From the NCBI GenBank assembly GCA_019873725.1, contig JAIOAS010000002.1, positions 1,012 through 65,011 of the forward strand: 64,000 nt of DNA. The letters are read 5' to 3'. Positions 38,921 to 64,000 of this stretch are shown piece by piece. Position numbers and translations under genes: made by a program. Each line of letters begins with the position of its first letter. Position 1 is the stretch's first letter. Below the pieces are notes generated by a model that had not been told where the DNA came from, searched no databases, and was given only the letters and a program-made list of their open reading frames with translations. Source of the stretch: Chloroflexota bacterium. GTDB lineage: Bacteria; Chloroflexota; Anaerolineae; B4-G1; SLSP01.

Positions 38921-38990
38921 CATTCCAGTATCGAGCTTCCAGCATCCAGCCTCAAGCTTCCAGCTTCCAGCATCCAGCCTCAAGCCCCAA
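38921..38990. repeat. GCTGGAA/GCTGGAT tandem repeats forming the methyltransferase C-terminal tail
   Basis: cagtatcgagcttccagcatccagcctcaagcttccagcttccagcatccagcctcaagc. Confidence 0.5.
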
Positions 38991-48276: not shown

Positions 48277-48454
48277 ACCACCTCCTGTGGCCTGGAAATG
48301 GGTCGTGATCCGTCTACAGTTTATCATCTTTTGGGGAAGGATGCAAATGTACTTGCTATAGGGCACAATCTTCCTTGCTTTTTCGCAGCCTGACGTTATA
48401 GTTAGGGTATGCACATTGTCGTATTCCGGTTCTTGAGATGACTTCAAGCTATCT

Positions 48455-51220
48455 ATGATGACAGCAGTACAATCCCCAACACCTACTACGCACCGGCGAT
48501 TCTTCTCAGACCGCCAAGCCGCGCTGCGGTGCATCGCCTCCGCGTTGGAATCTGCCGAACACATACGGATTGCCACGGCGTACTTTGAGGGTTCAGGATT
48601 TCAGGCGCTCCAAGAGACGCTCAGAGGCAAAAAGATTCGTCTGCTTGTGGGACGGCAGGAAGGTGGAGAAGATAGCTTTCGCGAAGTATTGAAAGAATTC
48701 GTCCGAGAGCTTTCCTATGGTCCGCAAGAGCATCGCAGCCGCGCTATGCAGCAAATGTTGGAGGCGCTGGAACAAGGATGGATGACCGTAGCAGTGGGAG
48801 CAGCGTTATCCGAAGACTTGCCCTGGCTAGAGGCGCGCTATCTCTACCATCATGCCAAACTCTACATCGCCGATGAACGATTCGCAGTAGTTACATCAGC
48901 TAATTTTTCATACCATGGCTTGTGTATTAGCCGTGAAGCTGGGATCACGGTCACTGATTCCGACGATGTGCGCTACTTTGTCCATTGCTTCGACAAGTAT
49001 TTTGACCAGGCGCGTTCCATTACTGCAGAGCTAATCGAAGCCCTGCGGGCGTATCTGCGCGCGTATGATCCCTATGTAGTCTATGCTCGCGCTTTGCTGG
49101 AACTGTATGGCTTGCCACAGGACGAAGCGCCGCCACAATTGCCCCCTTTGGCCAAGTACCAGGAAGGCGTAGTATCCAGCGTTTTGCGGTCGCTCCTGGA
49201 ACACCATGGGGCGTTCCTTATTGCTTCGACCGGCTTGGGCAAGACAATCATCGCCGCACACGTCGCAGCCTACTTGCGGATGCAAGGTGAAATCGATAGC
49301 GTAGTGGTGATCGGACCGGCAGGACTCCGTGAGGTCTGGAGGCGCTCCATGCGGGCAGCGCGGGTACCCAGCGTAGAATTCTCATATCACACCCTCACCC
49401 GCACCGACGGCGACTCAAACTTGCCCATCCTGGAACACGAACTGCGCCAGGTCAATGAGCAGACACTTATTATCCTTGACGAATCCCATCGCCTGCGCAA
49501 TGAAAGCAGCAATGGCGGCGATCTGCGGTTGAGCAATGCGCGAATCCAAGAAGCCGTGCGGGAAAAAGGGGCCAAAGTGTTGCTCCTAACCGCCACCCCT
49601 TATGGCAAGGATTTTTCGGAAGTCGAAAGTCAATTGAAGCTCTTGCCTGCTCCGAGACACGCTATGCACACTGCATTAGGATTCACCACCAGCATTACGA
49701 CATGGCAAGCGCAAAAGTTGGCCGATTTGCCAGAACTACCGCCCTGTACAGTGCTAACCACACCGGATGTCGTGCGGCACTTTGGACATCAAGACGAACA
49801 GGGTGAACGCTATGTTGTATTCTCTGAAACCGATCGGCGCTATTTCCCGCGCCGTATCCGCCTGCAGACCGTACGTTACGACAACCCTTTCGATGAGTTC
49901 CTGGCTGAGCTTCTCGAAAGTAAATTGCTGTATAAAGAATTGGCATCCGGCAAACCATCTCCACAGGCTGCTCTGCCACTCGACCTACCCAATGGACATG
50001 GTGAAAGGCTACCCCTGCAAGAAGCACTCTTCTTACATCAGTTTTGTTCTTCGCCAGCAGAAGTCAAAGAGGTGTGTGACAAACTTGAGTTCGGCGGCTA
50101 CAACTACACCTTTGCCCGCCAAAAGGAACTGAGCGATTTCGTCCGGGAACGACGCAGACTCATCCGACAATCTGGGAACCCTCGCAAAGACCCAAAGCTA
50201 CGGGCCTTATTCGACATTATCAAGACGGCTAAAGACAGCAAATTAGTCATCTTTTGCGAGTATCATGCCACAGCACGTTATCTACGAGAAGGATTACTGA
50301 AGCTTATGCCGCGTTTGAAAGTCGAAACGACGCTGGATGTATCCGATTTGGATGGTCTTCTACGTCGTTTTGCTCCGCTGGCTAATGAAGTGCTGCCGGA
50401 AGAGCGCCAACCAGAACAAGAAATCCAGGTATTGATCGCCACACGCTCTATGGCTGAGGGCTTTAACCTGCAGGATGCGGCAATACTGGTCAATTACGAT
50501 CTGTCTTGGACAGTCTTACAACTGGCACAACGTATGGGGCGCATTCTACGTCCCTGGCATATTCCCCGCGACGTAACCATCTATAACTTTGTACCTTCTA
50601 CAATGGATCATGCGCGCATTGCACATGCTCGTAATTGGGAACGCCGCTTGCGAGAACGCAATCGCCAACATCGCTCGCTTGCCCAGATCCCCGTGATGGT
50701 TTATAAGGAAAGCCGCCAGAGCAATTTGGCGCAAGAGCTTGAGATGGAACGCCTGGGGCGCGAAATGTACCTGTCTGGAGAGACCTATGCTGACCTGGAT
50801 TTACACCAGGTAATGGAATTCATCCAATCGGTGGATGATCTCACGACCAGCACCTTCTACAATGATCTGGCAACCATTGCCAACCGTGATGAAATTCTCA
50901 ACTTGCCGGCTGGGATCCGGAGCGCCATGGTCAAGCCTGGTCGCAAGCGTCTGTTTCTCTTGCTGCGTAGCGCGCGTTCACGTTTGGATACAGTTCTGGC
51001 AGACAGTAGAGGGCGTCCATTGGATGAAAGTTGGCGACGCGATGACGTGATGCGGGCCATTCGATGTCTGCCTGAGACACCCAAAGCACCTGCTGCTACC
51101 TATCCTACACCTGATGATTTTGACACCTGGATCGAAGTTACACGCAATGAGTGGGCGACCCAGCACGGACTCGATGCAACAAAACTACAGATCGTCTGTG
51201 CTTTGGCATTACTGCCGTAG
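48455..51220 (+). CDS. PLD-like (HxK) domain fused to SF2 helicase (DEAD/SNF2-like)
   Basis: PLD: YLYHHAKLYIADERFAVVTSANFSYHG. Helicase: FLIASTGLGKTIIAAH, LIILDESHRLRN, VLLLTATPYG, VLIATRSMAEGFNLQDAAILVNYDLSWTVLQLAQRMGRILRPW. Confidence 0.75.
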   Translation: MMTAVQSPTPTTHRRFFSDRQAALRCIASALESAEHIRIATAYFEGSGFQALQETLRGKKIRLLVGRQEGGEDSFREVLKEFVRELSYGPQEHRSRAMQQMLEALEQGWMTVAVGAALSEDLPWLEARYLYHHAKLYIADERFAVVTSANFSYHGLCISREAGITVTDSDDVRYFVHCFDKYFDQARSITAELIEALRAYLRAYDPYVVYARALLELYGLPQDEAPPQLPPLAKYQEGVVSSVLRSLLEHHGAFLIASTGLGKTIIAAHVAAYLRMQGEIDSVVVIGPAGLREVWRRSMRAARVPSVEFSYHTLTRTDGDSNLPILEHELRQVNEQTLIILDESHRLRNESSNGGDLRLSNARIQEAVREKGAKVLLLTATPYGKDFSEVESQLKLLPAPRHAMHTALGFTTSITTWQAQKLADLPELPPCTVLTTPDVVRHFGHQDEQGERYVVFSETDRRYFPRRIRLQTVRYDNPFDEFLAELLESKLLYKELASGKPSPQAALPLDLPNGHGERLPLQEALFLHQFCSSPAEVKEVCDKLEFGGYNYTFARQKELSDFVRERRRLIRQSGNPRKDPKLRALFDIIKTAKDSKLVIFCEYHATARYLREGLLKLMPRLKVETTLDVSDLDGLLRRFAPLANEVLPEERQPEQEIQVLIATRSMAEGFNLQDAAILVNYDLSWTVLQLAQRMGRILRPWHIPRDVTIYNFVPSTMDHARIAHARNWERRLRERNRQHRSLAQIPVMVYKESRQSNLAQELEMERLGREMYLSGETYADLDLHQVMEFIQSVDDLTTSTFYNDLATIANRDEILNLPAGIRSAMVKPGRKRLFLLLRSARSRLDTVLADSRGRPLDESWRRDDVMRAIRCLPETPKAPAATYPTPDDFDTWIEVTRNEWATQHGLDATKLQIVCALALLP

Positions 51221-51267: not shown

Positions 51268-51296
51268 GTATCCCTCTTGATTTCACCCCCTCCCGT
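51268..51296 (+). promoter_or_regulatory. second sigma70-like promoter (TTGATT-17/18-TATAAT)
   Basis: ctcTTGATTtcaccccctcccgtatggTATAATattgg. Same -35 and -10 hexamers as the promoter at 735-762. Confidence 0.4.
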
Positions 51297-51484
51297 ATGG
51301 TATAATATTGGTAAGAATCGTTCTTTACCAGTTCCATAACCTGCCCATCCTGACCTGCCCGCGCCTGTCGCGGGTCCGCTGTCTTTGTTGCATCATATCC
51401 GGTCATCGGACTGGAAACCCTGACATACCTTGAAAGCCCCACCGGGGCATCTGACGTTTTTCACGCCTGACGGACTTTGTGCCG

Positions 51485-51516
51485 CCCACGTTAGATGCTT
51501 GCCCGCGTGGGGCTTT
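51485..51516 (+). terminator. terminator-like hairpin + U-tract
   Basis: cccacg-ttagatgcttgcc-cgtggg followed by gcTTTTTgcg. Confidence 0.3.
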
Positions 51517-52073
51517 TTGCGTTCCAATGATACCTTCAGTCCGTGGTCGCGGCATCGGCCTTGCAGCGCAAGGCTTGTGCCGAGGCTCCGGCCTCACATC
51601 CGGCCCTGTCTGATCAAGACAAGGCGCAATGGGCAGAACCTTAACAACCTCAATATTCTTATTCTGACTGCGAAAGGCAGAGCCGTGGGCAGCGCCCGGA
51701 GAACAATCCCGGTGCATTTCCTGCGGCTGCCAATACGCAATTCTGAAACGTAAAGACGTAAAACGTAATGCGCAAGAAAGACACGGCGACTTGGCTTTGT
51801 CCCTTTACGTTTCACGTTTTACGCCTTATTCTGCCCATCTTTGCTTTGGCCTCTCCGGTGCCCCGGCCTAAAAACAGTCGGTGCGCGGGAGACGCACTGA
51901 TTGATACCCTGGTTCATCCACGCACCACCCCGACCCCGGCTTCAGCTTGTCGAGTCAGCCAGGCGATGGGGCGTCCGGCTGACCACTGTTTTCGTCGTTG
52001 TCCTTCACACGGGAGGCGCATCGTTCTCCCGTCGTGGAGAACCCGTGCGCCTCTCAGTTGTGATCCACTGGTA

Positions 52074-52124
52074 ATCAACAAATCTCAAATCAACAAATCT
52101 CAAATCAGCAAATCACAAATCTAA
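52074..52124. repeat. AAATCTCAAATCA tandem repeat upstream of RBS; paralog at 60878-60920
   Basis: aatcaacaaatctcaaatcaacaaatctcaaatcagcaaatcacaaatcta. Both copies end ...GGAGGTATRC(G)AATG. Confidence 0.55.
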
Positions 52125-52137
52125 TCGGAGGTATGCA

Positions 52138-53052
52138 ATGTCTTGGCAAGATCGTGACAACTCGCAGATTCTACAAGAAGAAATGGTGTCCGAATACCCG
52201 TTCATTCAATACGTGAACGATGGTGGTTCGTTGGAACCCCGCGAAACCACCGGCGGCTTTGCGATGAGCGCGGAGCAGGCGGAACTGCTCAAGGCTACGC
52301 CCAACGGCGCGGTCGAACACACGCTCATCTTCAGCACCGGCGAAAGCGAAAGTGTGTTCTTCACCGACTGGCTGCGCTTCGTGCCTTTGGCGACGCGCTT
52401 CGCCTGGGTCAAGGACGGCAACCGGCTCGGCGGCTTCGTGGACGGGGCGCGCGGGAAACTGCAAGCCCTGGGCTACGTGGAGACCGAGAGCGGGTACGTC
52501 GGCCCGGTGATGCTAACCGTCAAAGGGATGGCATCGAAAGACCTGGCGCAGGCGTTGCGCGAACACCGGCAGGCGGTGCGCAAGGCGACGCAGGGCAAGG
52601 CCCCCAGTTCGTTCTTCGCGGTGCTGCTGCACGCCGGGGAACCGGCAATGCGCGGCACCAAGCAGAAGAGCCGCGCCACCCCCATTGTACGTTCCAATGA
52701 GTTCGACCCGGATGTGGACTACATCGGGGACGAGCTGGCCGACCTCATCGAGGCCGAGTGGGAGCTGTACAAGCAATGGGCGGCGGCCTGGGAGCACAAC
52801 CCCGGTCCCAACGGTGACGGTGAATTGGCTGACGGCGACGTACCGGTCGAGGAAGAAGGCGCTGCGCCTACCGACGCTCCGGCGAAGGCTGGCAAAGCGG
52901 ACGCTGTTCCGGCGACGGAGAGCACCAAACGGTTGCTCACCGCGTTGATGCGCGGCAAGGGCTTCACGCCGGACGCCATCGACAGCACGCTGGATGGCAT
53001 CACCGCCGACGCCGCGCAAGCCTTGCTCGCCGAACTGAAGCGCCAGGGGTAA
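52138..53052 (+). CDS. hypothetical protein (acidic C-terminal tail)
   Basis: 304-aa ORF with RBS cggaggtatgcaATG. No recognised domain. Confidence 0.45.
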   Translation: MSWQDRDNSQILQEEMVSEYPFIQYVNDGGSLEPRETTGGFAMSAEQAELLKATPNGAVEHTLIFSTGESESVFFTDWLRFVPLATRFAWVKDGNRLGGFVDGARGKLQALGYVETESGYVGPVMLTVKGMASKDLAQALREHRQAVRKATQGKAPSSFFAVLLHAGEPAMRGTKQKSRATPIVRSNEFDPDVDYIGDELADLIEAEWELYKQWAAAWEHNPGPNGDGELADGDVPVEEEGAAPTDAPAKAGKADAVPATESTKRLLTALMRGKGFTPDAIDSTLDGITADAAQALLAELKRQG

Positions 53053-53055
53053 GCG

Positions 53056-53535
53056 ATGGACGGACAAGCTGTATACCGCGTCTATCGCCGTCACCCCGCG
53101 CAACACCGTCCGGCGCGTCAGGCCCAAGTGCGTCCGGCGCAGGAACCCCGTGAAACGGAGAACCTGCACTGGCGACCGGCGCAGCAAGCCGCACCAACTC
53201 GGACTGTACCGTGCCAGGCGGCGGACTTGCACTGGCGGCCACAATGCCAGCAAGCGCACGCGCCGGCGCCGCGCCACCCGCGCTCCGCACCCCGGCGCAA
53301 GCCGCGCGGAGGGGCCAGGTGGTGGCGTCCGCTGTTCTTGTTAGCGTTGATCGTGCCTGGTCTGACGTGGCTGTATGCCCAAGCGCCGCGCCTGTTGCCC
53401 TTCACGGCCCGACACGGTGCGCACCCTGGCTTGCTTCTGCTGGTCGTGGTCGCCCTGGTGGTAGCCGGTGGACTGAAGCAGGTGGTCTGGTTCAAGACCA
53501 TGCAGCGCGTTGCGCCCACGTTGTCTGAGGAGTAG
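53056..53535 (+). CDS. Arg-rich N-terminus, two-TM membrane hypothetical protein
   Basis: WRPLFLLALIVPGLTWLY and LLLLVVVALVVAGGL hydrophobic helices. Confidence 0.4.
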   Translation: MDGQAVYRVYRRHPAQHRPARQAQVRPAQEPRETENLHWRPAQQAAPTRTVPCQAADLHWRPQCQQAHAPAPRHPRSAPRRKPRGGARWWRPLFLLALIVPGLTWLYAQAPRLLPFTARHGAHPGLLLLVVVALVVAGGLKQVVWFKTMQRVAPTLSEE

Positions 53536-53695
53536 GTTTCTGTCCTACATCCGATGTAAAAGCCCCTGGCTTTTACCAAGCGCCTGTGGACTCAGTTCCC
53601 AGGCGCTTTTCTCCATTCCTGCCCTGTCGAGGAGGCTGTGCGCCTCCGTGACAGGAGACGCCGGCCTTCCTCGTCACCTACGAGGAGGTATACAA

Positions 53696-54165
53696 TGACC
53701 TTTCAGCAAGTTCAAGGCGAGCCCCTTCACCAAGTTCAGGGCAAGCCATTTGCCCCTGTCCTGAAGCTGCCCACAATGGCAGCCCCGCTTCACCCCGTCG
53801 CCTTCACCCCGGAACAGCAACAGCGCCGCGCCCGGTTGATCCAACAGACCGGTACCGCGCTGCGCGCTGATCCCACGGTGACACGTCTACGGGGCACAAT
53901 GACCCCCACGCCGCCGCGCGCGGTGTGGCTGGACTTCACGTTGTCGTATGATGCCACACCCTATTGCCTGACGTTTCCCAACACCGCGCCCACCGTAACC
54001 CTGTGGATGCCGGGACGCTTCGCGCCGTGGGAGACGCTGGCCTGCTGGACGTTGGCCGACTTTGCAACCGGCGCAGACCTGTGGGAAGCCGTGAAAGCCA
54101 CCCTGGACGCGCCGGAACTGGACGTGCTCCACCGTTGGCTGGAAGACACCGGAGGTGTACCGTGA
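53696..54165 (+). CDS. hypothetical protein
   Basis: RBS cgaggaggtatacaATG. The ORF-track start at 53638 lacks an RBS. Confidence 0.4.
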
Positions 54166-54692
54166 ATGCCACGCTCGCCCACGAACTCCAACAACGGTTG
54201 GGCTACCACTTTGCCAACCCTGACCTGCTGCGCCTGGCCTTGACCCACAGTTCCGCCGGCGTGCAGAACTACGAACGCCTGGAACACCTGGGCGACGCGG
54301 TGCTGGAACTGGCGGTGACCTACTGGCTCTACCGCGACTTCCCGCACTTCGGGCCGGGCCAGATGAGCATCTTGCGCGCCGAGTTGGTGCGCGCTGAAAG
54401 CCTGGCGCGCTTCGCCCGGCAACTGGAACTGCCCTGGGCTGTGCGCTTGAGCCTGCGCGCCGACAGTCGTGGCTTGCGCCAGCGCACCTCGGTGCTCAGC
54501 GACGTCTTCGAGGCGGTGCTGGGTGCGGTGTTCGTGGACACGGCGCTTGACACCGGCAACACCGATTTAGCGACGGTGCAGACTGTGCTCCGTCCGTTGG
54601 TGACGCCGCTGGCCGATACCGTCATCCACCGCAACCCCGGCTTCTACCGCATATCCACTCCGGGACTCACGCTGTATCCCAGCCTGCCCTGA
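54163..54692 (+). CDS. mini-RNase III-like ribonuclease (catalytic domain only, no dsRBD)
   Basis: YERLEHLGDAVLELAVTYWLY matches the RNase III signature ERLEFLGDA. Acidic SDVFEAVLGAVFVD. GTG start overlapping the upstream stop. Confidence 0.6.
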
Positions 54693-54730
54693 CCCCGCAT
54701 CCCGCGCGGAACGGGCAACGCCCCTAACCT

Positions 54731-54768
54731 GTAACTCGCAACTCGCAACTCATAACTCGCAACTCATC
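54731..54768. repeat. AACTCGC tandem repeat
   Basis: gtaactcgcaactcgcaactcataactcgcaactc, immediately 5' of caaggaggtaactcgtATG. Confidence 0.55.
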
Positions 54769-54786
54769 CCCAAGGAGGTAACTCGT

Positions 54787-55713
54787 ATGAACCCATTGTT
54801 GTCATCCGCGTTGGCTTACACCCGCGCGGGCTTATCCGTGATTCCCTGTGACCGGCGGCGCAAACAACCGCGCCTGCGCCGGTGGAAGCCGTACCAGGAC
54901 CGTCCACCCACGCCTTTCGAGGTGTGGCGCTGGTTCGGTCCCTGGACGCAGGCCGACGCCCTCGCCGTGATCACCGGTGGGGTCAGCGGCGATCTGGAAG
55001 TGCTCGACTTCGATGCGCCCGCGCTGTTCGCGCAATGGGCGACGGCGCTGATGCAGTACGACGCGACGCTGCTCGCGCGGCTGCCCGTGGGGCAGACGCA
55101 AAGCGGCGGCTACCACGTGTACTATCGTTGTGACGTGGCGATCAGCGGCAACCAGAAACTAGCCGTGGATCCAGCCAAGCCCGGCGGCAAGTTCACGCTC
55201 ATCGAAACGCGCGGCGCGGGCGGCTACGTGCTGGCCCCGCCGAGCGCGGGCTACACGCTGCTGCAGGGCGACCTGACCGCGATCCCGTTTCTGAGCTGCG
55301 AAGAACGTGCGGCGCTCTTGGACACCGCGCGGCAGTTCAGCCGTGTACCGCCGGTCTGCGTGCCACGCACGGCGATGACGCCCTGGCGCTATGCAACGCA
55401 GGCCCACCGGCCCGGCGACGACTACAACCGGCGCGGGGACGTGGTGGGCATCCTGGAACGCCACGGCTGGCGCTGTGTACGCCACGTCCACGAGGCATCG
55501 TACTGGCGACGACCGGGGAAGCGGTGCGGACATTCCGCCACCTACAACTACCGCGACTCGCGCTGTTTCTACGTCTTCACCAGCAATGCCCCGCCGTTCG
55601 ACCCCGCGCGGGCCTACAGCCCCTTCGCCGTGTTTGCGTTGTTGGAACACGGCGGCGACTACCACGCGGCGGCCACGGCCTTGCGGCAGTTAGGCTATGG
55701 CGGTAGCTCATAG
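54787..55713 (+). CDS. bifunctional primase-polymerase (Prim-Pol) N-terminal domain replication protein
   Basis: ALAYTRAGLSVIPCDRRRKQP...WKPYQDRPPTPFEVWRWF...LAVITGGVSGDLEVLDFD matches the Prim-Pol (PF09250) pattern with acidic catalytic motif. Confidence 0.65.
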   Translation: MNPLLSSALAYTRAGLSVIPCDRRRKQPRLRRWKPYQDRPPTPFEVWRWFGPWTQADALAVITGGVSGDLEVLDFDAPALFAQWATALMQYDATLLARLPVGQTQSGGYHVYYRCDVAISGNQKLAVDPAKPGGKFTLIETRGAGGYVLAPPSAGYTLLQGDLTAIPFLSCEERAALLDTARQFSRVPPVCVPRTAMTPWRYATQAHRPGDDYNRRGDVVGILERHGWRCVRHVHEASYWRRPGKRCGHSATYNYRDSRCFYVFTSNAPPFDPARAYSPFAVFALLEHGGDYHAAATALRQLGYGGSS

Positions 55714-55813
55714 CTATCAGCCGTCAGCGGTCAGCGTTAGCAGCGCAGCCAGCCCTTGACGTGAGGATGAGATGCACCTCCGGGCTGATGGCTGAAAGCT
55801 GAATGCTGACGGC
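55706..55813. repeat. AGCTATCAGCCGTCAGC / GCTGATGGCTGAAAGC inverted tandem-heptamer hairpin
   Basis: agctcatagctatcagccgtcagcggtcagcgttagc ... gctgatggctgaaagctgaatgctgacggc. Confidence 0.6.
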
Positions 55814-55836
55814 TTTTACTCACAAGGAGAACCACG

Positions 55837-56298
55837 ATGAACACCTTTGTCAGTCTTGTCTACGTTGAAACATTAGCCGACTTTGCTCGCGAAGTGTCCT
55901 GTGAGTGCCCGGTGCGGCTGTTGTTGTCGCACCAGACGCAAGGGCAGAGTCCCTTGTTCAGCCGCGTCTACACGTTGACGTTAGCTGGTTTCAACGCCTA
56001 CCACGAACTGGTCATTCTGGCCGACACCGTGCAGATTGACCTCGACCCGCAAGGACAACAGCCCTGGACGGCGGCAGGGGAGTCCATTGCCGAGCAGGTC
56101 GCCACCTGGCGCGCCCTGGTGCGCGAGCATCTGGAAGCGCGCGGGTATACCGTGTGGCCGGCAATGTACGCGCTCCCGAAGGATTACACCGCCTTGCGGG
56201 GCACGTTCGAGTGTGTGCGCTGGCGCAAGACCGGGGACACCTGGTCGGTCGAAGCCGCCACGCCGGAAGCGGAGGCAACCCAATGCCCTACCGCTTGA
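55837..56298 (+). CDS. hypothetical protein
   Basis: 153-aa ORF with RBS aaggagaaccacgATG. Confidence 0.35.
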   Translation: MNTFVSLVYVETLADFAREVSCECPVRLLLSHQTQGQSPLFSRVYTLTLAGFNAYHELVILADTVQIDLDPQGQQPWTAAGESIAEQVATWRALVREHLEARGYTVWPAMYALPKDYTALRGTFECVRWRKTGDTWSVEAATPEAEATQCPTA

Positions 56299-56771
56299 CC
56301 TATAATGACCGCCTGTACATCCAATGTGACGTCTGCGGGAAGGTGTATCCGCAGCTCTTTGCCGACGACTTTGCCACACCCTTGCCACCCGGCTGGGGCG
56401 GCGGGCCGTCACACGTGCGCTGTCTGTACTGTGAAGCCGACTGGCCGCAATGCGATGTGTATGGTTATGGCTGGAAATCGGGAACACCCGTGCCAATCAT
56501 CGATCACTGGACCGGCGCGCGGTCAGGGCCGGTGTTCCCCGGCGAACCACCGGAGCACTACCCGCTGGGCTACTTCCGTAGCTTTGGCGCGGCCCAAGTG
56601 CCGTACTTCTCGCGCAAAGCGAAGGTGCACCTGTTGGGCCACTGGATCAGCAGCGCCGAACGGGTGTTGCCGACCCTGAGCCGCCTCGACCAACCGGCGC
56701 AAGAACGCCGCATCGCCCGCTGGCGACAGGAGTTCGACGCGCTGCTGGCCGAGATCGCAGCGGACCGTTGA
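56283..56771 (+). CDS. hypothetical Cys-containing protein (possible zinc ribbon)
   Basis: CDVCGK...CLYC pairs. ATG at 56283 inside the longer ORF-track call 56154..56771. Confidence 0.3.
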   Translation: MPYRLTYNDRLYIQCDVCGKVYPQLFADDFATPLPPGWGGGPSHVRCLYCEADWPQCDVYGYGWKSGTPVPIIDHWTGARSGPVFPGEPPEHYPLGYFRSFGAAQVPYFSRKAKVHLLGHWISSAERVLPTLSRLDQPAQERRIARWRQEFDALLAEIAADR

Positions 56772-56885
56772 TTGTAACTTGAAAACATCACCCTTGCAGG
56801 AGTTGCTGCCGCTCCTGCAACGGGGGCACGTGGGCAGCAACTCCTGCACGCATCTTAAAACCAAGACTATGCAGGAGGAACAATA

Positions 56886-57575
56886 ATGAGCACTTTGCAT
56901 ACTTTGCCCTTACACGAACGCCCGGCGGCGCGCTTGAGTTACGTCGGCAGCGCTGGGGTCAGCCAGGTCGAACTCCTGGCGCTTCTCATCGGTGGCCCTG
57001 ACCAACTCGACATCGCGCAAGCCGTGGTGCAACGCTTTGGGGACACACTGCCCCAGGCTTTGACCGATGAACTCCTTGCCATCCCCGGCATCGGAGCGGC
57101 GACAGCGGCCCGGATACGGGCGGCTCTGGAACTGGGACGGCGGTTTGCCCACGGCCAAGACACCGACCGGCGACAGATCAGCAGTCCGAGCGACGCCGCC
57201 GACATCCTGATGGCCCTCATCGGCCATGCTGAACAGGAGTGCTTTGCCGTGCTGTATCTGGACATCCGCAACCGCGTGCAGGATCAGGAGATTCTGTATC
57301 GCGGCACGCTCAACACCACGCATATCCGTCCCGCCGAAATCTTTCGCGGTGCGGTGCGGCGCAATGCGGGCGCGGTGTTGGTCGGGCATAACCATCCTTC
57401 GGGCGACCCACGGCCTTCCCCGGAAGACCGCGACATCACCCGTACCCTGATCCAGAGCGGGAAATTGGTGGAGATAGACGTGGTGGATCACGTGATCATC
57501 GGACGTAACCGCTGGACGAGCTTGCGCCAGACTGGTGGTGAACTCTGGGAGGCGTTGCCGGGGGTGACCCGATGA
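56886..57575 (+). CDS. radC: RadC-like JAB/MPN domain protein
   Basis: HhH region (LAIPGIGAATAARI) plus JAMM motif VLVGHNHPSGDPRPSPEDRDITRTL. Confidence 0.8.
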   Translation: MSTLHTLPLHERPAARLSYVGSAGVSQVELLALLIGGPDQLDIAQAVVQRFGDTLPQALTDELLAIPGIGAATAARIRAALELGRRFAHGQDTDRRQISSPSDAADILMALIGHAEQECFAVLYLDIRNRVQDQEILYRGTLNTTHIRPAEIFRGAVRRNAGAVLVGHNHPSGDPRPSPEDRDITRTLIQSGKLVEIDVVDHVIIGRNRWTSLRQTGGELWEALPGVTR

Positions 57576-57907
57576 ACGGTGTCACACCGCTACCTGGCAA
57601 GTGGCGGGCGCGACACTCCACGGCGCTGGCCGATGAGACCCGCGCGGCAGTGGAAGCCTGTCTGAATAGCTTTGCCGCTACGAAGACGGCAACGCCGACC
57701 CCGCCGACCACTGTGTCGGCCCAATGGGAAGACCTGTTGGCCGGACGGCTGGCGCACTGCCACTTACCAGCCGGCGTCCTGGAACGCCTCATTGCCGAGG
57801 CCGTGGCCGACACGATGTCGGCAATGGCCGCGACGTTGGAACGCCAGTTGCGCTTCCGCATCCAACGCGAGCAACAGGCGCAATTGCAGACCTGTGACGA
57901 TTACTGA
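57572..57907 (+). CDS. hypothetical protein
   Basis: 111-aa ORF with overlapping start. Confidence 0.3.
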   Translation: MNGVTPLPGKWRARHSTALADETRAAVEACLNSFAATKTATPTPPTTVSAQWEDLLAGRLAHCHLPAGVLERLIAEAVADTMSAMAATLERQLRFRIQREQQAQLQTCDDY

Positions 57908-58207
57908 GTGGTACTGTTGATCGTGTTGTTACATTTCTCCGCGTATTGGCCTACTCCGTAAGTGCTGACATCGTTTGACGATTCCAGCACACTGCGACTC
58001 TATGTCGCGCATCCGCAAGGGAAGCGGACGAGGACGCACAGCGTCTTTCTCCGCTTCCCCGGCCTTTTCTTCGCAGGACCGCGCTGCGTGCGGCTCTGCT
58101 TTTCGCAGAATACGTTTTTCCCCGGCAGGGAGGCACATCGTTTCCCCGCCTGGGGAGCTATGTGTGCCACCTTGCCACCATTCTATCTTGAGCAAGGAGG
58201 CTCAACC

Positions 58208-59329
58208 ATGCAACTGACCTGTGTGAACGAAACCTTGAGTGCCGGCCTGAGCCGGGTGGGACGCGCCGCGTCTCCCCGTGCGACGGCAATGCCCATCTTG
58301 GGCCATGTTCTGTTGGATGCCACACCCGATACGCTGACCCTCGCGGCCAGCAACCTCGAATGGCACATCGTCCAACGCATTCCCGCCGTGGTCACTGAAC
58401 CCGGGCGCGTCACCGTCCCCGCGGCAGCCTTCGCCGAGTGGGTCAAGATGCTGCCCGCTGGTTTGACCTCGGAACTGACGCTGGACGTCACGTCCCTCAC
58501 GTTGTCAATGACCTGTGACCAGGCCAACGCGCGCTTTCGCGGCCTGGATGCAACGGAGTACCCGCTTCTGCCGGAACCCGATGCCGACAGCGTGGAAGTC
58601 GAGGCTACGGCCTTGCGCGCGGCGCTGACCCGCGTGGCGTTCGCCGCCTCGGAGGACGCCGCCCGTCCGGTGTTGATGGCCGTGCTGGCGCACTTCGCGG
58701 GACAGACCCTCACGCTGGCGGCTGCCGATGGCTACCGCCTGTCCGAGGCGCAAGTTCCGCTGGCCGCGCCGGTCACCGCGCCCTTCGATGTGCTGATTCC
58801 TGCGCCGGTCTTGGCCGAAGTCCAACGGTTGTTGGGCCGCGAAGGGACGGTGACGTTGTCCGTCACTGACCTGCGCGACCGCATCGCCTTGCACTTCGAC
58901 GCGACCACGGTGGTCTCCCAAGTCGTGGCCGGGACTTACCCCAACTACAAGGCGGTGATCCCGACCAGCACGGCCACGAGCGTCACGGTGGAACGCGCGG
59001 CAGTGCTCCACGCCTGCCAGCGGGCGCGCATCTTTGCCCGCGATGTCGGCGGCCTGGTGCGGTTGCACCTCGATGACGCTGGCCTGACGGTGACGGCGGA
59101 GTCCGCCACGGGCGGCGATAGCAGCACGGTCGTGCTGGTGGTGAGCCACCAGGGACTGGCGCTGGATATTGCCTTCCGTGTGGACTTCCTCATCGAAGCG
59201 TTAGCCGCGTTGGACACCTCGCTGGTAGGACTGCGCTTCAACAGCGCCCTGCAACCGGGTGTCATTGGGCTGGCTGATGTGGATGCCTTCGTCCACGTGG
59301 TGATGCCGATGGAGATCGGTAGACGGTAG
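58208..59329 (+). CDS. dnaN: DNA polymerase III beta subunit (sliding clamp)
   Basis: MQLTCVNETLSAGLSRV...AMPILGHVLLDA...LTLAASNLEWHI and YPNYKAVIP motif. RBS agcaaggaggctcaaccATG. The C-terminal codons overlap a repeat element. Confidence 0.8.
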   Translation: MQLTCVNETLSAGLSRVGRAASPRATAMPILGHVLLDATPDTLTLAASNLEWHIVQRIPAVVTEPGRVTVPAAAFAEWVKMLPAGLTSELTLDVTSLTLSMTCDQANARFRGLDATEYPLLPEPDADSVEVEATALRAALTRVAFAASEDAARPVLMAVLAHFAGQTLTLAAADGYRLSEAQVPLAAPVTAPFDVLIPAPVLAEVQRLLGREGTVTLSVTDLRDRIALHFDATTVVSQVVAGTYPNYKAVIPTSTATSVTVERAAVLHACQRARIFARDVGGLVRLHLDDAGLTVTAESATGGDSSTVVLVVSHQGLALDIAFRVDFLIEALAALDTSLVGLRFNSALQPGVIGLADVDAFVHVVMPMEIGRR

Positions 59330-59538
59330 ACGGTAGACAGGAGGGAGAGAATTCTCCCCGTCTACTGTTGGCTGACTATTGGCTACCCGGCCTGACAAGG
59401 CCACTCAACATCAATGTGAATCGTTGTGCAACATTAACCTGGAGACGGAAGACAACCGACTACCGACAGGGCAACACCCCCTCTTCCCCTTCTCCCTTTC
59501 CCCGCCCCGTCTACCGTCTACTGTCTACCGTCTACTCT
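59318..59538. repeat. GGTAGAC-family inverted tandem-repeat hairpin; paralog of 3781-3940
   Basis: ggtagacggtagacggtagacagg ... ccccgccccgtctaccgtctactgtctaccgtctactc. The right arm plus flanking C-rich tract is ~90% identical to 3893-3940. Confidence 0.7.
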
Positions 59539-59551
59539 CAAGGAGAAATCG

Positions 59552-60685
59552 ATGAACCCTGTACTGACCTTTCAAGATGATGTTACCTCGTTGTTGACCG
59601 AGTTGCGGCGCTATCTGGCGCAGTACCCGGAGATGCCGCTGCTGTGCAGCGTGACGTACCCCTTGCCTGGCTTGCCGTTGATCCCGGAACGCGCCGAGCG
59701 CGTCTACCGCAACTACCGCCAGTATCTCCAAACGCCGTGGGGCCTCGCCGTCTACACCGACATCCGCCACTACCAGTACCCGCAGCTTTCTTACGCGGGC
59801 CTCTACACGCTGGTCGAAGTGGCGAAAGACGTCGTGTGTCCGCAGCCGACGGCGCCAGAACCCGCTGTGGCCGTGGTCAACCCGATCAATGGACTGGCCG
59901 CGGTCTACGCGGGTGACACCCTGGCGACGGAGACAATGGACGGTACGCCGGCCTGGGAAGGGAAGCTGATCTTGCCCGACCACTGGAATGCGGTCGATGT
60001 GCTGTACCAGGTACGGCTGGCGTTGGCCCAGGCGGGTGCCGCGTGGTATCCCGGTGCGTTGTACGTCGAACGAGTGGCCTATCCCTGGCTCACGCCAGAG
60101 GGCTTGCCCACGCAGACGGCCTACATCGCCAACGGGGAAGTGCGCTTGCCCGTCATCGGCTACGCCATCGACCCGCATACCGAGGCGCTCGTGTACCTGA
60201 GCCTGGTGGGGCACAAGACCGCCGCGCGCAGCATCTGGGGATCGCTGAACACGATGCACCAGCGCAAGCTGACCCTGGAAGCGCACCGCACCCAGACTAC
60301 GGTGGTTTCGTCGCACAACTACGCCACCTACACCGCCAGCGTGGACGCCGACACGGGCCTGCTGCGGATGCAGATCGTGGAACGCCGCGCCTGCGCCGCC
60401 GATGTGGAGGACTGGGTCTACCTGGTCACCCCACCGGGCCTGGACGCAGCGGCGGTCAATGCGGCCTTCGCCGCGCGCCTCAGCGCCGTGTTGCCTATCG
60501 GCGTGCCGGCGCAATGGGGCGGCAAGTTGCGCGAGGCCGGCGACGATCTGGGCCTGGTGCGGCGGTGCTTGTGCGGTGGGGACGTGGGCGCAGCCTACGC
60601 GCTCACCGCTGATGAACAATGGCTGGACGTGATCGCAGGCTTGTTGCGCGACGATCCGGCCTTCGTGATTCCTGAGACGTTGTAA
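59552..60685 (+). CDS. hypothetical protein
   Basis: 377-aa ORF with RBS caaggagaaatcgATG. No recognised domain. Confidence 0.45.
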   Translation: MNPVLTFQDDVTSLLTELRRYLAQYPEMPLLCSVTYPLPGLPLIPERAERVYRNYRQYLQTPWGLAVYTDIRHYQYPQLSYAGLYTLVEVAKDVVCPQPTAPEPAVAVVNPINGLAAVYAGDTLATETMDGTPAWEGKLILPDHWNAVDVLYQVRLALAQAGAAWYPGALYVERVAYPWLTPEGLPTQTAYIANGEVRLPVIGYAIDPHTEALVYLSLVGHKTAARSIWGSLNTMHQRKLTLEAHRTQTTVVSSHNYATYTASVDADTGLLRMQIVERRACAADVEDWVYLVTPPGLDAAAVNAAFAARLSAVLPIGVPAQWGGKLREAGDDLGLVRRCLCGGDVGAAYALTADEQWLDVIAGLLRDDPAFVIPETL

Positions 60686-60712
60686 GCGTGATCTTACGCG
60701 GTTTGTTCCTTT

Positions 60713-60784
60713 GGACAGGATTAACAGGATAAAAAAGTTGGCAGCAAGCCTTTCCTAATCCTGAAAATCCTGTTAATCCTGTCA
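60713..60784. repeat. CAGGATT-family inverted tandem repeat (paralog of 10265-10346)
   Basis: gacaggattaacaggat ... aatcctgaaaatcctgttaatcctgtc. Confidence 0.7.
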
Positions 60785-60877
60785 GAAAATGACACACCAC
60801 GTCACGCCTGATCTTACACACCGGGGGATGCACCATGCATTCCCCCGGTGGGAATGTACGGTGTGTCCTCCGTTGGT

Positions 60878-60920
60878 CAATCATCAAATCTGCAAATCAC
60901 CCAATCATCAAATCACATCA
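60878..60920. repeat. AATCATCAAATCWS tandem repeat upstream of RBS
   Basis: caatcatcaaatctgcaaatcacccaatcatcaaatcacatca. Confidence 0.5.
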
Positions 60921-60935
60921 ATGGAGGTATACGAA

Positions 60936-63900
60936 ATGGCACGTCTAATCAATGCTGAAGTGTTGGGGTTCTTCGCGACCCCACCAAATGTCACCGCGCT
61001 CATCGCGGAATGGTTACAGGCCCCACAAGGCGAAAAACTGTGGCGGCTCCTCGATCCCTGCTGTGGCGAAGGCGTGGCTGCCGCGCAACTGGCGACTGCG
61101 CTCGGCGGCCCGGTACAAACCTGGGGCGTCGAACTGAGTCCCAAGCGTGCCGAACGCGCCGCAGCGGTGCTGGACAAGGTCCACAACACCGCCTGGCAAG
61201 CCACGCGGGTGAGTAAGGAATCCGTGTCGTTGCTATTGTTGAACCCCCCGTATGACAGCGACCTGGACGGCGACAGCAAGCGCCTGGAAATCGAATTCCT
61301 GCGCACGGCGCTGCCCACGTTGGTCCACGGCGGGGTCCTGGTCTACATCGTGCCCCAACACCTGTTGGGCTACCGCGACGTGGCGCGGCTGTTGTCCGGC
61401 CACTTTGAGAACATCGTCGTGCGCCGTTTTCCCGACGGCGAGTACGAACGCTTCAAGCAAGTCGTGGTGCTGGCACGGCGCAAGCCCTACAGCACGCCGA
61501 CCGAGGAAAGCCTGGATGTCTTGCGCGCCTTGCGCGACGCCGACCTGCCGCCGTTGGCCGCACCGCCCGAACGCTGGCGACGCGAGTTACCTGCTGCGCC
61601 GCTGAAGGCGAAGTGTGTGCGCATCGACCTCAGCGACCGCGAGCAGGTGGCTCTGGGCTACGCCCTGGACTGGCCGGATGCGCTGCGCCAGGCGTTGCAA
61701 CCGCAAAGCCAGACCCCTTTCTGCCCCCCGATCCCGCTCAAGAAAGGGCACGTGGCGATGCTGATGGCCTCCGGGCTGATGGGCACCTTGCTCATCCGCA
61801 AGGACGGGCAGCGGCTCTTGGTCAAGGGCCGCGTGCGCAAGGCGCAGGACGTGAGCACCGAGGAAACGGAGAAAGGCGACGTGATCACCATCCGCCGCGA
61901 CCGCTTCACCACCACGGTGGGCGTCGTGTCCGCTGACGGTGTGCAAGTGCTCGACGACGTAGCCGGGTTGACTGCCTTTATGGAAGACTACGGCGAGGAA
62001 ATCGCTGCCGAAATCCTGAAGCATCCCCCGCGCTACGACTTGAAGCCGACAACGGCAGAATGGCAACACCTGAGCACGCTGGGCAAGAACCGTGCGGCGC
62101 TGCCAGGCCAGGCCGAAGCCGGGTTGCTGCCAGTGCAGAAGCACGTGACGATTGCACTGACACGCACGTTGCAAGCGCGGAAAAACGCCCTGATCCAGGG
62201 CGAAATGGGTTGTGGGAAGACCACGATTGGCCTGGCGACCATCGATGCGCTCAACGCCTACCCCGCACTGGTCGTTGGTCCGCCGCACCTGGTGGAGAAG
62301 TGGCTGCGTGAGGCCGCCGAGGTCATCCCCGGTGTGCAGGTGCGCGAGTTGCGCAAGGTGGGGCGCAATGGCGACCCGCACGATATCAACGATGCACGCG
62401 AGTTTGTTGAAGACTGGCAAGCCGGGCGCTTGGGCGACAAGGCCATCGCCGTCATCTCCGAGACCAGCGCCAAGCTGGGATCAGGGTGGCGCGGGGCCAC
62501 CGCGACGCGCTACATGCTGCTGCGGCCTAAGCCACGCCGCGATGAACGCGAGGTCGATCCGGCGCAGGTGCAGCGGGAGCAGTTCCGCAAGGCCGTGCAA
62601 GCCTACAAGGAAGCACGAAGAGTGCTCCTGGAACTCAGCACCGGCGACGATGCCACCGCTGTGGCGCAGCAACGCGCTACGGTGGAGCGACTACGGAAAG
62701 CAGCATTGCAAGTCGCCACGACCATCCCGGTGTGTCCTGACTGTGGCAAAGTGCAACAGGAGCGCAATGGTTTGCTCTTGACGGCGAAGCTGTTCGACAA
62801 GCAGCCACGCCACTGCGACCGTCCCGGCATCGGCTGGGCGCGGGATGCGCAAGGCAGCAAGCTACGCGACGACGACGGCCAACCCACGTGGGTCTGGGAC
62901 GTCGAACACGAACACGCGCCGCGCTGTACCAATGCGTTGTTCCAGTTCGGGGATCAGTTCCGCCGTTGGCCCATCGCCGACTATGTACGTCGCAAGTGTC
63001 GCCACGTCTTCAAGCTGCTGATCGCCGACGAGGTGCATCAGTTCCGCAGCAAGGACAGCGACCGCGGCCAAGCCTTCCATCACTTGATCACGGCGACCAG
63101 ATACCATCTGGGAATGACAGGGACGGTCTACGGGGGGAAGTCCACCTCGGTCTTCTACCTCTTCTACCGCCTGTTCCCCCAGGTGCGTAACGCCTTCCCC
63201 TTCAATGGGGAGAAGCAGTGGGCGGCTAAGTACGGGGTGCTGGAAACGCGGCAGTATGGGGCCAAGGGCGCGACCGACGACGACAGCGCCGAGTTCGGGA
63301 GCTTCAATGCCACCCGGCGCGGGCACGTTACCGTCACCGAAAAGCCCGGCGTCTCCCCTGCGATCCTCTCGCAGATCGTGGATCACGCGATCTTCCTATC
63401 CTTGAAAGACCTCGGCGTGGGCCTCCCGGCCTACCGCGAGGAAGCCTTGCCCCTGGCGATGACCCCGGAGCAGGCCGCGCAGTACCAGCGAATGGAAGGG
63501 GCGCTGCGCCTGCAAGCGCGGCAGTACCCCAGTTGGCTATCCACGTGGCTGCAATGGTCGCTGTCGCGGCCTAACTCTGCCTTCCGCCCGGAAATCGTGG
63601 AGAAGCAGCGCCGGGACGACGAGGGCAATGTCATCGACGTGACCGCGTTTATGGAGTTGCCGGAGATTGTTGCCGGGGTGGATGCCACGACCAATTCTTC
63701 GGGTGAAGTGGTGTACGTGCCCAACGGCACTGCGCCACTGCCCAAGGAAGCCTGGTTGGTGGACTTCATCAAGGCCGAGAAAGCCGTGGGGCGCAAGACG
63801 CTGGTCTTCGTGCGCCAGACGGCCACGCGCGACATCCAGCCACGTATCCAGGCGGTGCTACGCCAGGCGCAGCTACGCGCGCAGGTGCTCTACGCTAACG

Positions 63901-64000
63901 TGGACACCCGCAAGCGCGAAGCCTGGGTCAACCGCCACGCGCCGGGGTTGGATGCCTTGATCTGCAATCCAGCTTTAATCGAAACTGGACTGGACCTTGT
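60936..64000 (+). CDS. N6-adenine DNA methyltransferase fused to SNF2-like helicase (DarB-like), C-terminus beyond window
   Basis: MTase: LLDPCCGEG (motif I), LLLLNPPYD (motif IV). Helicase: LIQGEMGCGKTTIGLA, LIADEVHQFRS, GMTGTVYGGKS. Zn-ribbon CPDCGK...HCDR. Continuous frame to the window end. Confidence 0.75.
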   Translation, partial: MARLINAEVLGFFATPPNVTALIAEWLQAPQGEKLWRLLDPCCGEGVAAAQLATALGGPVQTWGVELSPKRAERAAAVLDKVHNTAWQATRVSKESVSLLLLNPPYDSDLDGDSKRLEIEFLRTALPTLVHGGVLVYIVPQHLLGYRDVARLLSGHFENIVVRRFPDGEYERFKQVVVLARRKPYSTPTEESLDVLRALRDADLPPLAAPPERWRRELPAAPLKAKCVRIDLSDREQVALGYALDWPDALRQALQPQSQTPFCPPIPLKKGHVAMLMASGLMGTLLIRKDGQRLLVKGRVRKAQDVSTEETEKGDVITIRRDRFTTTVGVVSADGVQVLDDVAGLTAFMEDYGEEIAAEILKHPPRYDLKPTTAEWQHLSTLGKNRAALPGQAEAGLLPVQKHVTIALTRTLQARKNALIQGEMGCGKTTIGLATIDALNAYPALVVGPPHLVEKWLREAAEVIPGVQVRELRKVGRNGDPHDINDAREFVEDWQAGRLGDKAIAVISETSAKLGSGWRGATATRYMLLRPKPRRDEREVDPAQVQREQFRKAVQAYKEARRVLLELSTGDDATAVAQQRATVERLRKAALQVATTIPVCPDCGKVQQERNGLLLTAKLFDKQPRHCDRPGIGWARDAQGSKLRDDDGQPTWVWDVEHEHAPRCTNALFQFGDQFRRWPIADYVRRKCRHVFKLLIADEVHQFRSKDSDRGQAFHHLITATRYHLGMTGTVYGGKSTSVFYLFYRLFPQVRNAFPFNGEKQWAAKYGVLETRQYGAKGATDDDSAEFGSFNATRRGHVTVTEKPGVSPAILSQIVDHAIFLSLKDLGVGLPAYREEALPLAMTPEQAAQYQRMEGALRLQARQYPSWLSTWLQWSLSRPNSAFRPEIVEKQRRDDEGNVIDVTAFMELPEIVAGVDATTNSSGEVVYVPNGTAPLPKEAWLVDFIKAEKAVGRKTLVFVRQTATRDIQPRIQAVLRQAQLRAQVLYANVDTRKREAWVNRHAPGLDALICNPALIETGLDL

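Follow-up and report, generated by a model that had tools for sequence, protein, structure and literature searches.

Gene content of the block

The window analysed here is a 64,000-nucleotide stretch of contig JAIOAS010000002.1 from a Chloroflexota bacterium (assembly GCA_019873725.1), and its right-hand end is occupied by a run of plus-strand genes that is unbroken from position 52138 to the window end. Five genes in this run, all on the plus strand, were confirmed with Pfam and NCBIfam: an RNase III catalytic-domain protein of 176 amino acids (aa) lacking a double-stranded RNA-binding domain (dsRBD; 54162-54692), an archaeo-eukaryotic-type primase-polymerase (Prim-Pol; 54787-55713), RadC (56886-57575), the DnaN beta sliding clamp (58208-59329), and a DUF6094 methyltransferase fused to a helicase of the SF2/SNF2 type (60936-64000), hereafter the methylase-helicase. 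An initial annotation of this DNA had named these same genes at these positions. They belong to a same-strand block of ~13 kb that starts at 51269 and extends past the window end at 64000. The start is placed ~2.9 kb to the left of the one given in the initial annotation, with a conserved non-coding leader from 51269 and the first gene from 52138. The region is probably the larger part of a replication and establishment block belonging to a family of integrative, plasmid-like elements, which is confined to the Anaerolineae as sampled.

The Prim-Pol (PF09250, E=4e-20) has the motifs LDFD and GGYH, and its nearest solved structure is pRN1 ORF904 (E=1e-4). It consists of 308 aa and lacks the helicase half that is usually fused to it, as in pRN1 ORF904 and in phrog_19930, which was matched only over positions 13-330 of 865; in comparison with these replicases, the protein of the block ends before the C-terminal helicase. 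RadC, with its HhH and JAB-like domains, was recognized by PF04002 (E=1e-38) and by NF000642 (198.7 bits, cutoff 180). In one related locus, L179 (NCBI JBEFFE010060404.1), a group II intron encoding a reverse transcriptase with RVT_1 and GIIM domains is located within radC (16013-17713) and divides the protein into pieces of 178 and 46 aa.

The complete DnaN protein (373 aa) contains all three clamp domains (PF00712, PF02767, and PF02768), scores 222.2 bits with TIGR00663 against a cutoff of 137.65, and aligns over its full length with solved clamps, the C-terminal pocket strand HVVMPME being kept. The chromosomal dnaA-dnaN context considered in the initial annotation is not what is found at this locus. 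On one side dnaN adjoins a 111-aa open reading frame (ORF), p111, and then RadC, and on the other a 377-aa ORF, p377, but not dnaA, recF, or gyrB. With the window as the part of the genome in view, the private clamp of the initial annotation is a probable one. A DUF3307-like gene lies between p111 and dnaN in six related loci (L002, at 6651-7168, L004, L005, L007, L093, and L180) and is absent from the corresponding interval of the window (57907-58208). The GC content of the block (63-65%) equals that of the surrounding genome (~63% for the window), and a ribosome-binding site of the GGAGG type was present at all six start sites inspected, those of the RNase III, dnaN, and methylase-helicase genes among them.

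Conservation of the block and distribution of the element family

DNA homology between the window and three independent relatives (L002/L092, L093, and L006 in our numbering of related loci) begins sharply at 51269, ~50 nucleotides (nt) past the last upstream gene, with 80-84% identity in the leader, and the sequence to the left of this point is unrelated. The closest homologue of the methylase-helicase (91% identity) is encoded on a 201-kb metagenome contig, L002, where the gene order from p304, the first gene of the block, to the methylase-helicase is kept at 82-90% DNA identity. Since the same order recurs at 80-90% DNA identity on independent Anaerolineae contigs, it is not due to chance. 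Farther downstream, L002 carries a DUF6573 gene, a few unrelated cargo genes, and genes for a ParM-like actin (ALP_N), an FtsK/SpoIIIE protein of 422 aa, and a large serine recombinase of 525 aa; L004 has the same backbone with less cargo. In both relatives, the FtsK/SpoIIIE and integrase genes are situated 7-10 kb downstream of the methylase-helicase, outside the span of the window. A metagenome scan with the FtsK-like protein of L002 was dominated by generic chromosomal FtsK (~35% identity), and the target contig was not among its matches.

A locus scan using one genome per species recovered 78 loci, almost all from Anaerolineae/Chloroflexota, including the isolates Ornatilinea apprima, Flexilinea flocculi, and Leptolinea tardivitalis. 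Several metagenome-assembled genomes (MAGs) contain two to six copies of the block each, and the three copies in MAG CAZCTC01 are alike only in the block (90-98% identity) and divergent outside it. A gene of the p377 family is located directly upstream of the methylase-helicase, at about -1.26 kb, in 60 of the 78 loci, RadC homologues occur in ~45 (3-7 kb upstream of the methylase-helicase), and DnaN homologues in 37. The RNase III and Prim-Pol genes are restricted to nearer relatives, and more distant elements encode in the same place a single-stranded DNA-binding protein (SSB), a Rad52-like protein, a PolB-type exonuclease, and a DnaG-type primase. A syntenic block with differing flanks, its multi-copy state in several MAGs, and the presence of serine recombinase, FtsK/SpoIIIE, and ParM-like genes downstream in close relatives all agree with the earlier proposal that the locus is part of a mobile element. 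The element may plausibly replicate autonomously, although its Prim-Pol lacks the usual helicase half and no initiator was recognized.

The methylase-helicase and its C-terminal peptide

The methylase-helicase runs off the window after 1021 residues of a full length of ~1194. Its DUF6094 domain (PF19587, E=1.8e-35, 122.7 bits, cutoff 22.8) contains the motifs DPCCGEG and NPPYD, the helicase part has the ResIII/SNF2-type motifs GEMGCGKT and DEVH, and the protein also carries a Cys4 insert. Homologues of ~1100-1200 aa number in the hundreds and, where named, come almost exclusively from Chloroflexota/Anaerolineae. The pair formed by a DUF6094 protein and a helicase occurs in 345 plasmid records, of which 119 are typed as conjugative. 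Its carriers include the plasmid pKLC102, also an integrative and conjugative element (ICE), as well as Vibrio plasmids, Thermus plasmids, and Thermoanaerobacterium pMU3262, where the pair shares a ~27-kb region with ArdC-like, Rad52-like, and DUF87 (VirB4-like) genes. In tblastn searches, 90-94% of the methylase-helicase was covered across both plasmid genes at ~29-34% identity, and by these sequence matches it is a member of the DUF6094-helicase pair of conjugative plasmids and ICEs.

The combination of a methylase and a SWI2/SNF2-type helicase has been described as a 'methylase-helicase dyad' with DarB of phage P1 as the archetype (Iyer et al. 2017, PMC5512222). Such dyads were proposed to couple the methylation of incoming DNA to ATP-driven tracking, and they were counted with the early functions that invading elements transfer (PMC5512222).

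After a basic linker, members of the family terminate in one of four peptides, namely QQLGMF, which is that of the relatives with 91-92% identity, N/GQxSLF, QMALL, or GQMG(L/F)G(I/L). These peptides fit the bacterial clamp-binding consensus QL(S/D)LF, which is likewise located at the C-terminus (PMC9690074). The hexapeptide form resembles the peptide QLVLGL of Pol IV. A strict clamp-peptide pattern is present in the last 20 residues of 55 of the 112 full-length homologues, compared to 0.5% of internal 20-residue windows, and by eye nearly all of the 59 locus-encoded methylase-helicases terminate in QQLGMF, QxSLF, QMALL, or QMGLGI. These termini suggest that the element clamp tethers the methylase-translocase, and perhaps the DUF6573 protein, to element DNA; if so, the co-occurrence of dnaN with the dyad would be explained.

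A natural fusion of the methylase-helicase with DUF6573 is encoded in L011 (7452-11582; P0020). Its junction contains two clamp-binding-type peptides, QPSLF and QMALF, with an acidic linker between them, and DUF6573 may therefore be a second client of the clamp. Two further candidate clamp motifs were dropped, namely the C-terminal RQLGYG of the Prim-Pol, whose Q varies, being R in L005, L007, and L011, and the N-terminal 'TLHTLPLHERP' of RadC, which looks like the canonical RadC N-terminal region matched by PF20582.

The RNase III protein, p156, and p304

The RNase III domain (PF14622, E=5.5e-24; PF00636, E=8.6e-20) spans residues 19-130 of 176, and the tail of ~45 residues past it is too short for a dsRBD. 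The protein keeps both catalytic signatures, ERLEHLGD (residues 38-45) and DVFEA (114-118), with the catalytic residues at the E. coli Rnc positions (equivalents of E38, E41, D45, D114, and E117). The TIGR02191 model was matched only at its positions 1-127 of 219 (122.9 bits, cutoff 166.25), its dsRBD half remaining unmatched. In a sequence search of PDB, the best solved relative was E. coli Rnc (7r97, E=5e-25, Rnc residues 1-132), and below it came Drosha, Dicer, and Rnc chains from other sources. Although PDB includes a Mini-III structure, 4OUN, none of the matches at E<=0.01 was to a Mini-III chain. The protein had been described as a mini-RNase III, which is apt in so far as it is a dsRBD-less catalytic domain; by its profile and PDB matches, however, it is a truncated classical Rnc and not a member of the Mini-III (MrnC) family, whose role is the maturation of 23S rRNA. 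It resembles Mini-III in lacking the dsRBD but is no relative of it by sequence, it shares the positions of its catalytic signatures with classical Rnc, and it differs from both in being encoded by a mobile element and coupled to a 156-aa protein, p156.

The TGA stop codon of the p156 gene (53695-54165) and the GTG start codon of the RNase III gene overlap as GTGA, an arrangement that implies coupled translation of the two genes; the same overlap is found in the gene calls of L002, L093, and L179. Close relatives of the RNase III protein are few. Of 18,804 representative hits in a library of 1.84 billion proteins, each likewise a representative, only seven reached E<=1e-30 (lengths 118-605 aa), and the remaining hits were ordinary Rnc or Dicer/Drosha-type proteins, so that the RNase III of the block forms a small clade.

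The first gene of the block, p304 (52138-53052), had no match in Pfam, NCBIfam, PHROGs, or PADLOC. Its 52 homologues, where named, originate from Anaerolineae/Chloroflexota or from unassigned metagenomic bacteria. The AlphaFold model of p304 (pLDDT 84) gave only weak SSB/OB-fold-like matches, the best at E=0.06 to SSBs, and that of p377 (59552-60685; pLDDT 90.5) gave no PDB or BFVD fold match at E<=0.001. Foldseek comparison with PDB and BFVD thus leaves both as well-modelled proteins without a significant fold match. In L176 (10001-12047), p304, a 99-aa ORF, and a 205-aa RNase III head an unrelated run of small ORFs, in which no homologue of Prim-Pol, RadC, or dnaN was detected. Because p304 and the RNase III are joined in this different gene context, they constitute a sub-module of their own.

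Heptamer repeats and an inverted motif pair

The initial annotation had supposed that the RNase III might process hairpin-rich intergenic elements. The inverted repeats in the spacers of the block consist of tandem heptamers, a type of repeat that recurs between genes throughout the window, and the same GTAGACG hairpin pair occurs both at 3782-3936 and at 59317-59535. In addition, three of the four hairpin-bearing spacers of the block, all but that of the leader, fall in gaps of the L002 alignment. The hairpins are therefore best regarded as a feature of the host genome with no specific link to the RNase III, and the proposed tie between the two is not upheld. Tandem heptanucleotides (GTAGACG, CCAGCAT, GCTGACG, TGGATGC, and others) are present both inside and outside the element, often as inverted arrays flanking spacers; other examples were found at 5324-5463, 8298-8428, 17495-17694, 19876-20012, 38923-38990, 39769-39856, and 44697-44875. 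Such heptamer repeats recall the STRR repeats of cyanobacteria.

A different pair of sequences is conserved within the element family. The 28-nt motif CTGCGAAAGGCAGAGCCGTGGGCAGCGC is located in the leader (51668-51695, plus strand), and its reverse complement is found in the spacer between p111 and dnaN, just 5' of dnaN (58081-58108, minus strand), so that the two copies bracket the first half of the block, from p304 to p111. One plus- and one minus-strand copy occupy the equivalent positions in L002, L093, L007, L018, L013, L016, L179, and L180. The pair is conserved down to 54-55% identity of the methylase-helicase, with flanks that co-vary within each element, and no analogous long-range inverted repeat was observed in the distant elements L034, L050, L059, L009, L011, and L028. 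The pair could be either an RNA stalk or two DNA sites bound by a protein.

Other features of the block and the variable cargo

In addition to the first motif copy, the leader (51269-52137, plus strand) contains a promoter-like site detected by promoter scan (51277-51306), an inverted repeat (51753-51827), and three copies of the A/C-rich tandem sequence AATCAACAAATCTCA (52073-52121) just 5' of the p304 ribosome-binding site. A second A/C-rich tandem leader of this 'AAATCA' type (60879-60916) stands in the same position relative to the methylase-helicase, directly 5' of its ribosome-binding site, and both may be unstructured, translation-enhancing 5' leaders. A minus-strand ORF of 102-104 aa in the leader, called as a gene in L002, is rich in Arg and Pro and was treated as probably non-coding. 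Scans of the whole window with Rfam at gathering thresholds and for tRNA genes gave no match.

The remaining genes of the block are likewise all on the plus strand. The small p159 protein (53056-53535) has hydrophobic, membrane-like segments, and a 159-aa gene is also called in L093 and L179. The p153 protein (55837-56298) is kept at 85-89% in L002, L179, and L180, and its gene is overlapped by 16 nt by that of the Cys-rich p162 (56283-56771). The p111 gene (57572-57907) follows radC, and p377 lies directly 5' of the methylase-helicase. None of p304, p159, p156, p153, p162, p111, and p377 had a match in any family library scanned.

Outside the block, variable cargo (19900-51268) fills the interval between the backbone genes p238/p499 (17666-19875) and the leader. 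Among its genes are those for CHAT/FGE, C25-like, and Ig-like proteins, for Ppl (36013-38856), and for HmaA/B/C-like proteins. An HEC-01/AriA-like ATPase that contains a Schlafen domain is encoded together with a DUF4276 protein (33618-35998), and in parts of the cargo the GC content falls to 44-53%. The Hma-like set comprises the HmaB/DUF1156 methylase (38952-42008), HmaC/DUF499 (45238-48576), and two PLD-SNF2 helicases (29863-33621 and 48455-51220). Two related NCBI contigs, L179 and L180, share the PLD-helicase and HmaC cargo of the window at 89-96% protein identity. To the left of the leader, the Hma-like, Ppl, and HEC-01/AriA-like genes of the window are replaced in L092 by AbiJ, a type III restriction-modification (R-M) system, and Peptidase_M78, and in L093 by an MmeI/Eco57I-type methylase and a PLD protein. 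Homologues of p238/p499 are found upstream of p304 at a distance of 0.2 kb in L007, ~1 kb in L011, and ~9 kb in L176, only the last of these intervals containing a type III R-M system. As these homologues flank p304 in all three loci, we read the region from 19.9 to 51.27 kb as cargo inserted at a hotspot inside the element, whose backbone would extend to the left of the block. The block had been described as lying next to a defense island; defence genes do adjoin the leader, but the island is cargo of the element itself and not a neighbour to be countered. A second cargo hotspot follows the methylase-helicase and DUF6573 genes and contains type III R-M, BrxL, Hma-like, tyrosine recombinase, and NB-ARC genes.

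Several other observations concern the window to the left of the block. A minus-strand ORF in the cargo (44222-45241) encodes an N-terminal ASCH and a C-terminal DUF7680 domain with ~180 nt of heptamer arrays (44697-44875) between them. It may really be two genes, and in L179 a 392-aa DUF7680 protein is called at the equivalent position. A Tad/Flp-type pilus or secretion set (3882-10237) consists of a CpaE-like ATPase, a CpaF-type T2SSE ATPase, an A24 prepilin peptidase, and two TadB/C-like proteins; an overlapping ORF in this region (5479-6279) carries the 'Recombinase' domain of serine recombinases. A CpaF homologue is also present ~6 kb downstream of the methylase-helicase in L019.

Proposed function of the block and alternative explanations

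In the mechanism that we propose, the large serine recombinase seen in close relatives would excise and integrate the element, and the Prim-Pol would prime its DNA. The beta clamp of the element would be loaded at the primed sites and recruit the host polymerase and also, via the C-terminal QxxLF-type peptide, the methyltransferase-translocase, which would track along and modify element DNA during replication or just after entry. The modification would protect this DNA from restriction, including that by systems carried as the element's own cargo. The ParM-like actin of the relatives would partition the element, and their FtsK/SpoIIIE protein may move it between cells as double-stranded DNA, as in the actinomycete ICEs (AICEs). 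RadC, the RNase III with its coupled p156, p304, and p377 would then be accessory. The anti-restriction role of the methylase-helicase, which the initial annotation had held to be probable, is a putative one.

A more specific form of this proposal is offered tentatively and as less likely than not. It holds that the element's own clamp loads a DarB-like methyltransferase-translocase, possibly together with DUF6573, through the C-terminal peptide, making modification processive and coupled to replication or entry, and that the element is AICE-like (serine recombinase, Prim-Pol, and a single FtsK), spreading in filamentous Chloroflexota, outside the Actinobacteria to which such elements had seemed to be restricted. 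Clamp tethering of this kind would be analogous to that of the eukaryotic DNMT1 by PCNA. It represents a new and testable mechanistic lead, for if the peptide binds the clamp, it would provide a concrete, testable reason for a second dnaN on mobile elements and a mechanism by which dyads, tethered to a sliding platform, arrive at the DNA on which they act. The loci themselves outline a widespread and uncharacterised family of elements that carry defence genes in Anaerolineae, which are abundant bacteria of digesters and sediments. The mapped cargo hotspots of the family could be mined for new defence systems, and three cultured hosts (F. flocculi, L. tardivitalis, and O. apprima) are on hand.

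Several observations weigh against the proposed reading of the block as a whole. VirB4 and relaxase genes were seen neither in the window nor in the ~33 kb that surround the block in L092 and L002, and no att sites were found. Neither a replication initiator nor a replicative helicase was recognized to accompany a Prim-Pol that itself lacks the helicase half. The window ends inside the methylase-helicase, so the recombinase, FtsK, and ParM proteins are known from relatives of 82-92% identity, and the terminal peptide of the window copy, whose C-terminus falls past 64000, is likewise deduced from relatives. The methyltransferase also resembles small RNA methyltransferases (PF05175), and DNA is its putative substrate. 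The pKLC102 helicase and P1 DarB lack the terminal peptide, hence the clamp link is not general to the dyad; six loci for which 8 kb or more upstream is available encode the peptide and no element dnaN, so that the host clamp may suffice.

Among the other explanations, the block could belong to a temperate phage, as its early or replication region, and not to an element of plasmid-like or conjugative type. Relatives of the methylase-helicase (28-45% identity) are encoded on eight IMG/VR viral contigs, metagenomic 'phage' records match the protein at ~29%, and the SSB, Rad52-like, and exonuclease genes of distant relatives form a set typical of phage recombination modules; an ImmA-like Peptidase_M78 gene upstream of the block in L092 and the many small same-strand ORFs after p304 and RNase III in L176 point in the same direction. 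However, neither the 64-kb window nor the ~33 kb surrounding the block in L092 and L002 yielded a terminase, portal, capsid, or tail gene, and no hypothetical protein matched a PHROGs family. Moreover, the ParM-like and FtsK/SpoIIIE genes beside the recombinase suggest plasmid-like maintenance and transfer, and the best annotated relatives reside on conjugative plasmids and ICEs, which makes a prophage quite unlikely. It is also unlikely, though somewhat less so, that p377, the methylase-helicase, and DUF6573 form a defence or exclusion system, with an R-M-like self-marking methylase and an effector, that guards host and element from other invaders instead of serving anti-restriction. Pairings of a methylase with an SNF2-type helicase are indeed at the core of DISARM, Hma, and BREX-type systems, the trio is located between two defence-cargo hotspots, and p377, with its unmatched fold, could be the effector. 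Weak PADLOC matches to mad2 (59 bits) and ZorD (47 bits) would also fit, but no PADLOC model went beyond similarity at the level of domains. Furthermore, the trio is invariant backbone and not variable cargo, no nuclease domain was detected within it, the same pair is backbone of conjugative plasmids and ICEs, and dyads have been counted with the early functions that invading elements transfer (PMC5512222).

The idea that the RNase III cuts hairpins survives in its strongest form as processing of a long-range stalk, where the enzyme would cut a duplex between the motif copies at 51668-51695 and 58081-58108 and split the polycistronic transcript, as happens at rRNA processing stalks. The copies are complementary on a single plus-strand transcript, and their predicted duplex (-64.4 kcal/mol; -55.0 kcal/mol for the minus-strand version) is more stable than the controls (mean -39.2, standard deviation 6.6), although a single control window comes to -60.7 kcal/mol. 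The 28-nt cores of the two copies differ at four positions, of which in the window lineage three would allow G-U pairing on the plus transcript and none on the minus transcript, but this bias is gone in L018 and L016. The pair persists, with flanks that co-vary, in relatives whose methylase-helicase is only 54-55% identical, but two DNA sites for a protein would explain such flanks equally well. As L013 and L016 have the motif pair without an RNase III, L176 and L009 have the RNase III without the pair, and co-transcription across 6.4 kb is presumed, such processing is a weak possibility and we consider it very improbable. Least credible of all, to a degree that makes it almost negligible, is an ordinary chromosomal housekeeping locus with dnaN as the sole clamp gene of the cell. 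The GC content of the block and the heptamer repeats in its spacers, which match those of the surrounding genome, would fit such a locus. However, dnaN has none of the neighbours dnaA, recF, and gyrB, the block is multi-copy in some genomes and differs in its flanks between contigs, and in the scaffold-level genome of F. flocculi a homologous block is located at 1.04-1.07 Mb.

Comparison with known systems

The methylase-helicase and the DUF6094-helicase pairs of pKLC102/PAPI-1 of Pseudomonas aeruginosa and other elements share the PF19587 family and the helicase type, and both are backbone genes of mobile elements with a cargo or defence hotspot just downstream (PMC12629846). In the PAPI-1-type ICEs, the defence hotspot is bounded by 'a helicase' (PMC12629846), and the second hotspot of the elements described here parallels it. 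In contrast to these pairs, both halves are fused here into one protein of ~1194 aa with the Cys4 insert, accompanied by p377, DUF6573, and an element dnaN, and the host phylum is Chloroflexota. A C-terminal clamp-binding-type peptide is present here and not in the pKLC102 helicase.

The methyltransferase-helicase fusion had been called DarB-like, which holds for its domain order and dyad class. As in P1 DarB, an N-terminal amino-methyltransferase of the NPPY type is followed by a SWI2/SNF2-type helicase in a single polypeptide; both proteins are encoded by mobile elements, and their likely role is the protection of incoming DNA in cis. No full-length homology accompanies this likeness. The protein is half the size of DarB (~1194 versus 2255 aa), its methyltransferase is DUF6094 and not N6_Mtase/Eco57I-type, and DarB lacks a terminal clamp-binding peptide and is a virion head protein, which enters with the DNA and protects it from type I restriction, whereas nothing here points to packaging. 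The profile comparison with DarB that had been suggested as a check gave an hhalign probability of 41% over 157 columns, covering the generic methyltransferase core only, and P1 was not among the tblastn matches to phages at E<=1e-3. It is reasonable to suppose that the protein works like DarB; that it is a DarB is not supported.

AICEs have been defined by an integrase of the Tyr or Ser type, a Rep or Prim-Pol (PF09250), and a single FtsK/SpoIIIE protein (PF01580), and in that survey were found only in Actinomycetales (PMC3218068). As in SLP1 and pSAM2, the integrase, Prim-Pol, and FtsK/SpoIIIE are all present in L002 and L004, with no type IV secretion genes seen, and by their predicted domains these close relatives of the window qualify as AICE-like under that definition. 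Unlike AICEs, the elements described here inhabit filamentous Anaerolineae and not Actinomycetales, are much larger and loaded with defence cargo, and possess additional clamp, RadC, RNase III, and methylase-helicase genes; the likeness of their FtsK/SpoIIIE translocase to TraB and its role in transfer are putative. The locus as a whole combines known kinds of module, a mobile-element replication and establishment region and a methylase-helicase dyad, with the possible tethering of the dyad to a sliding clamp as the new lead.

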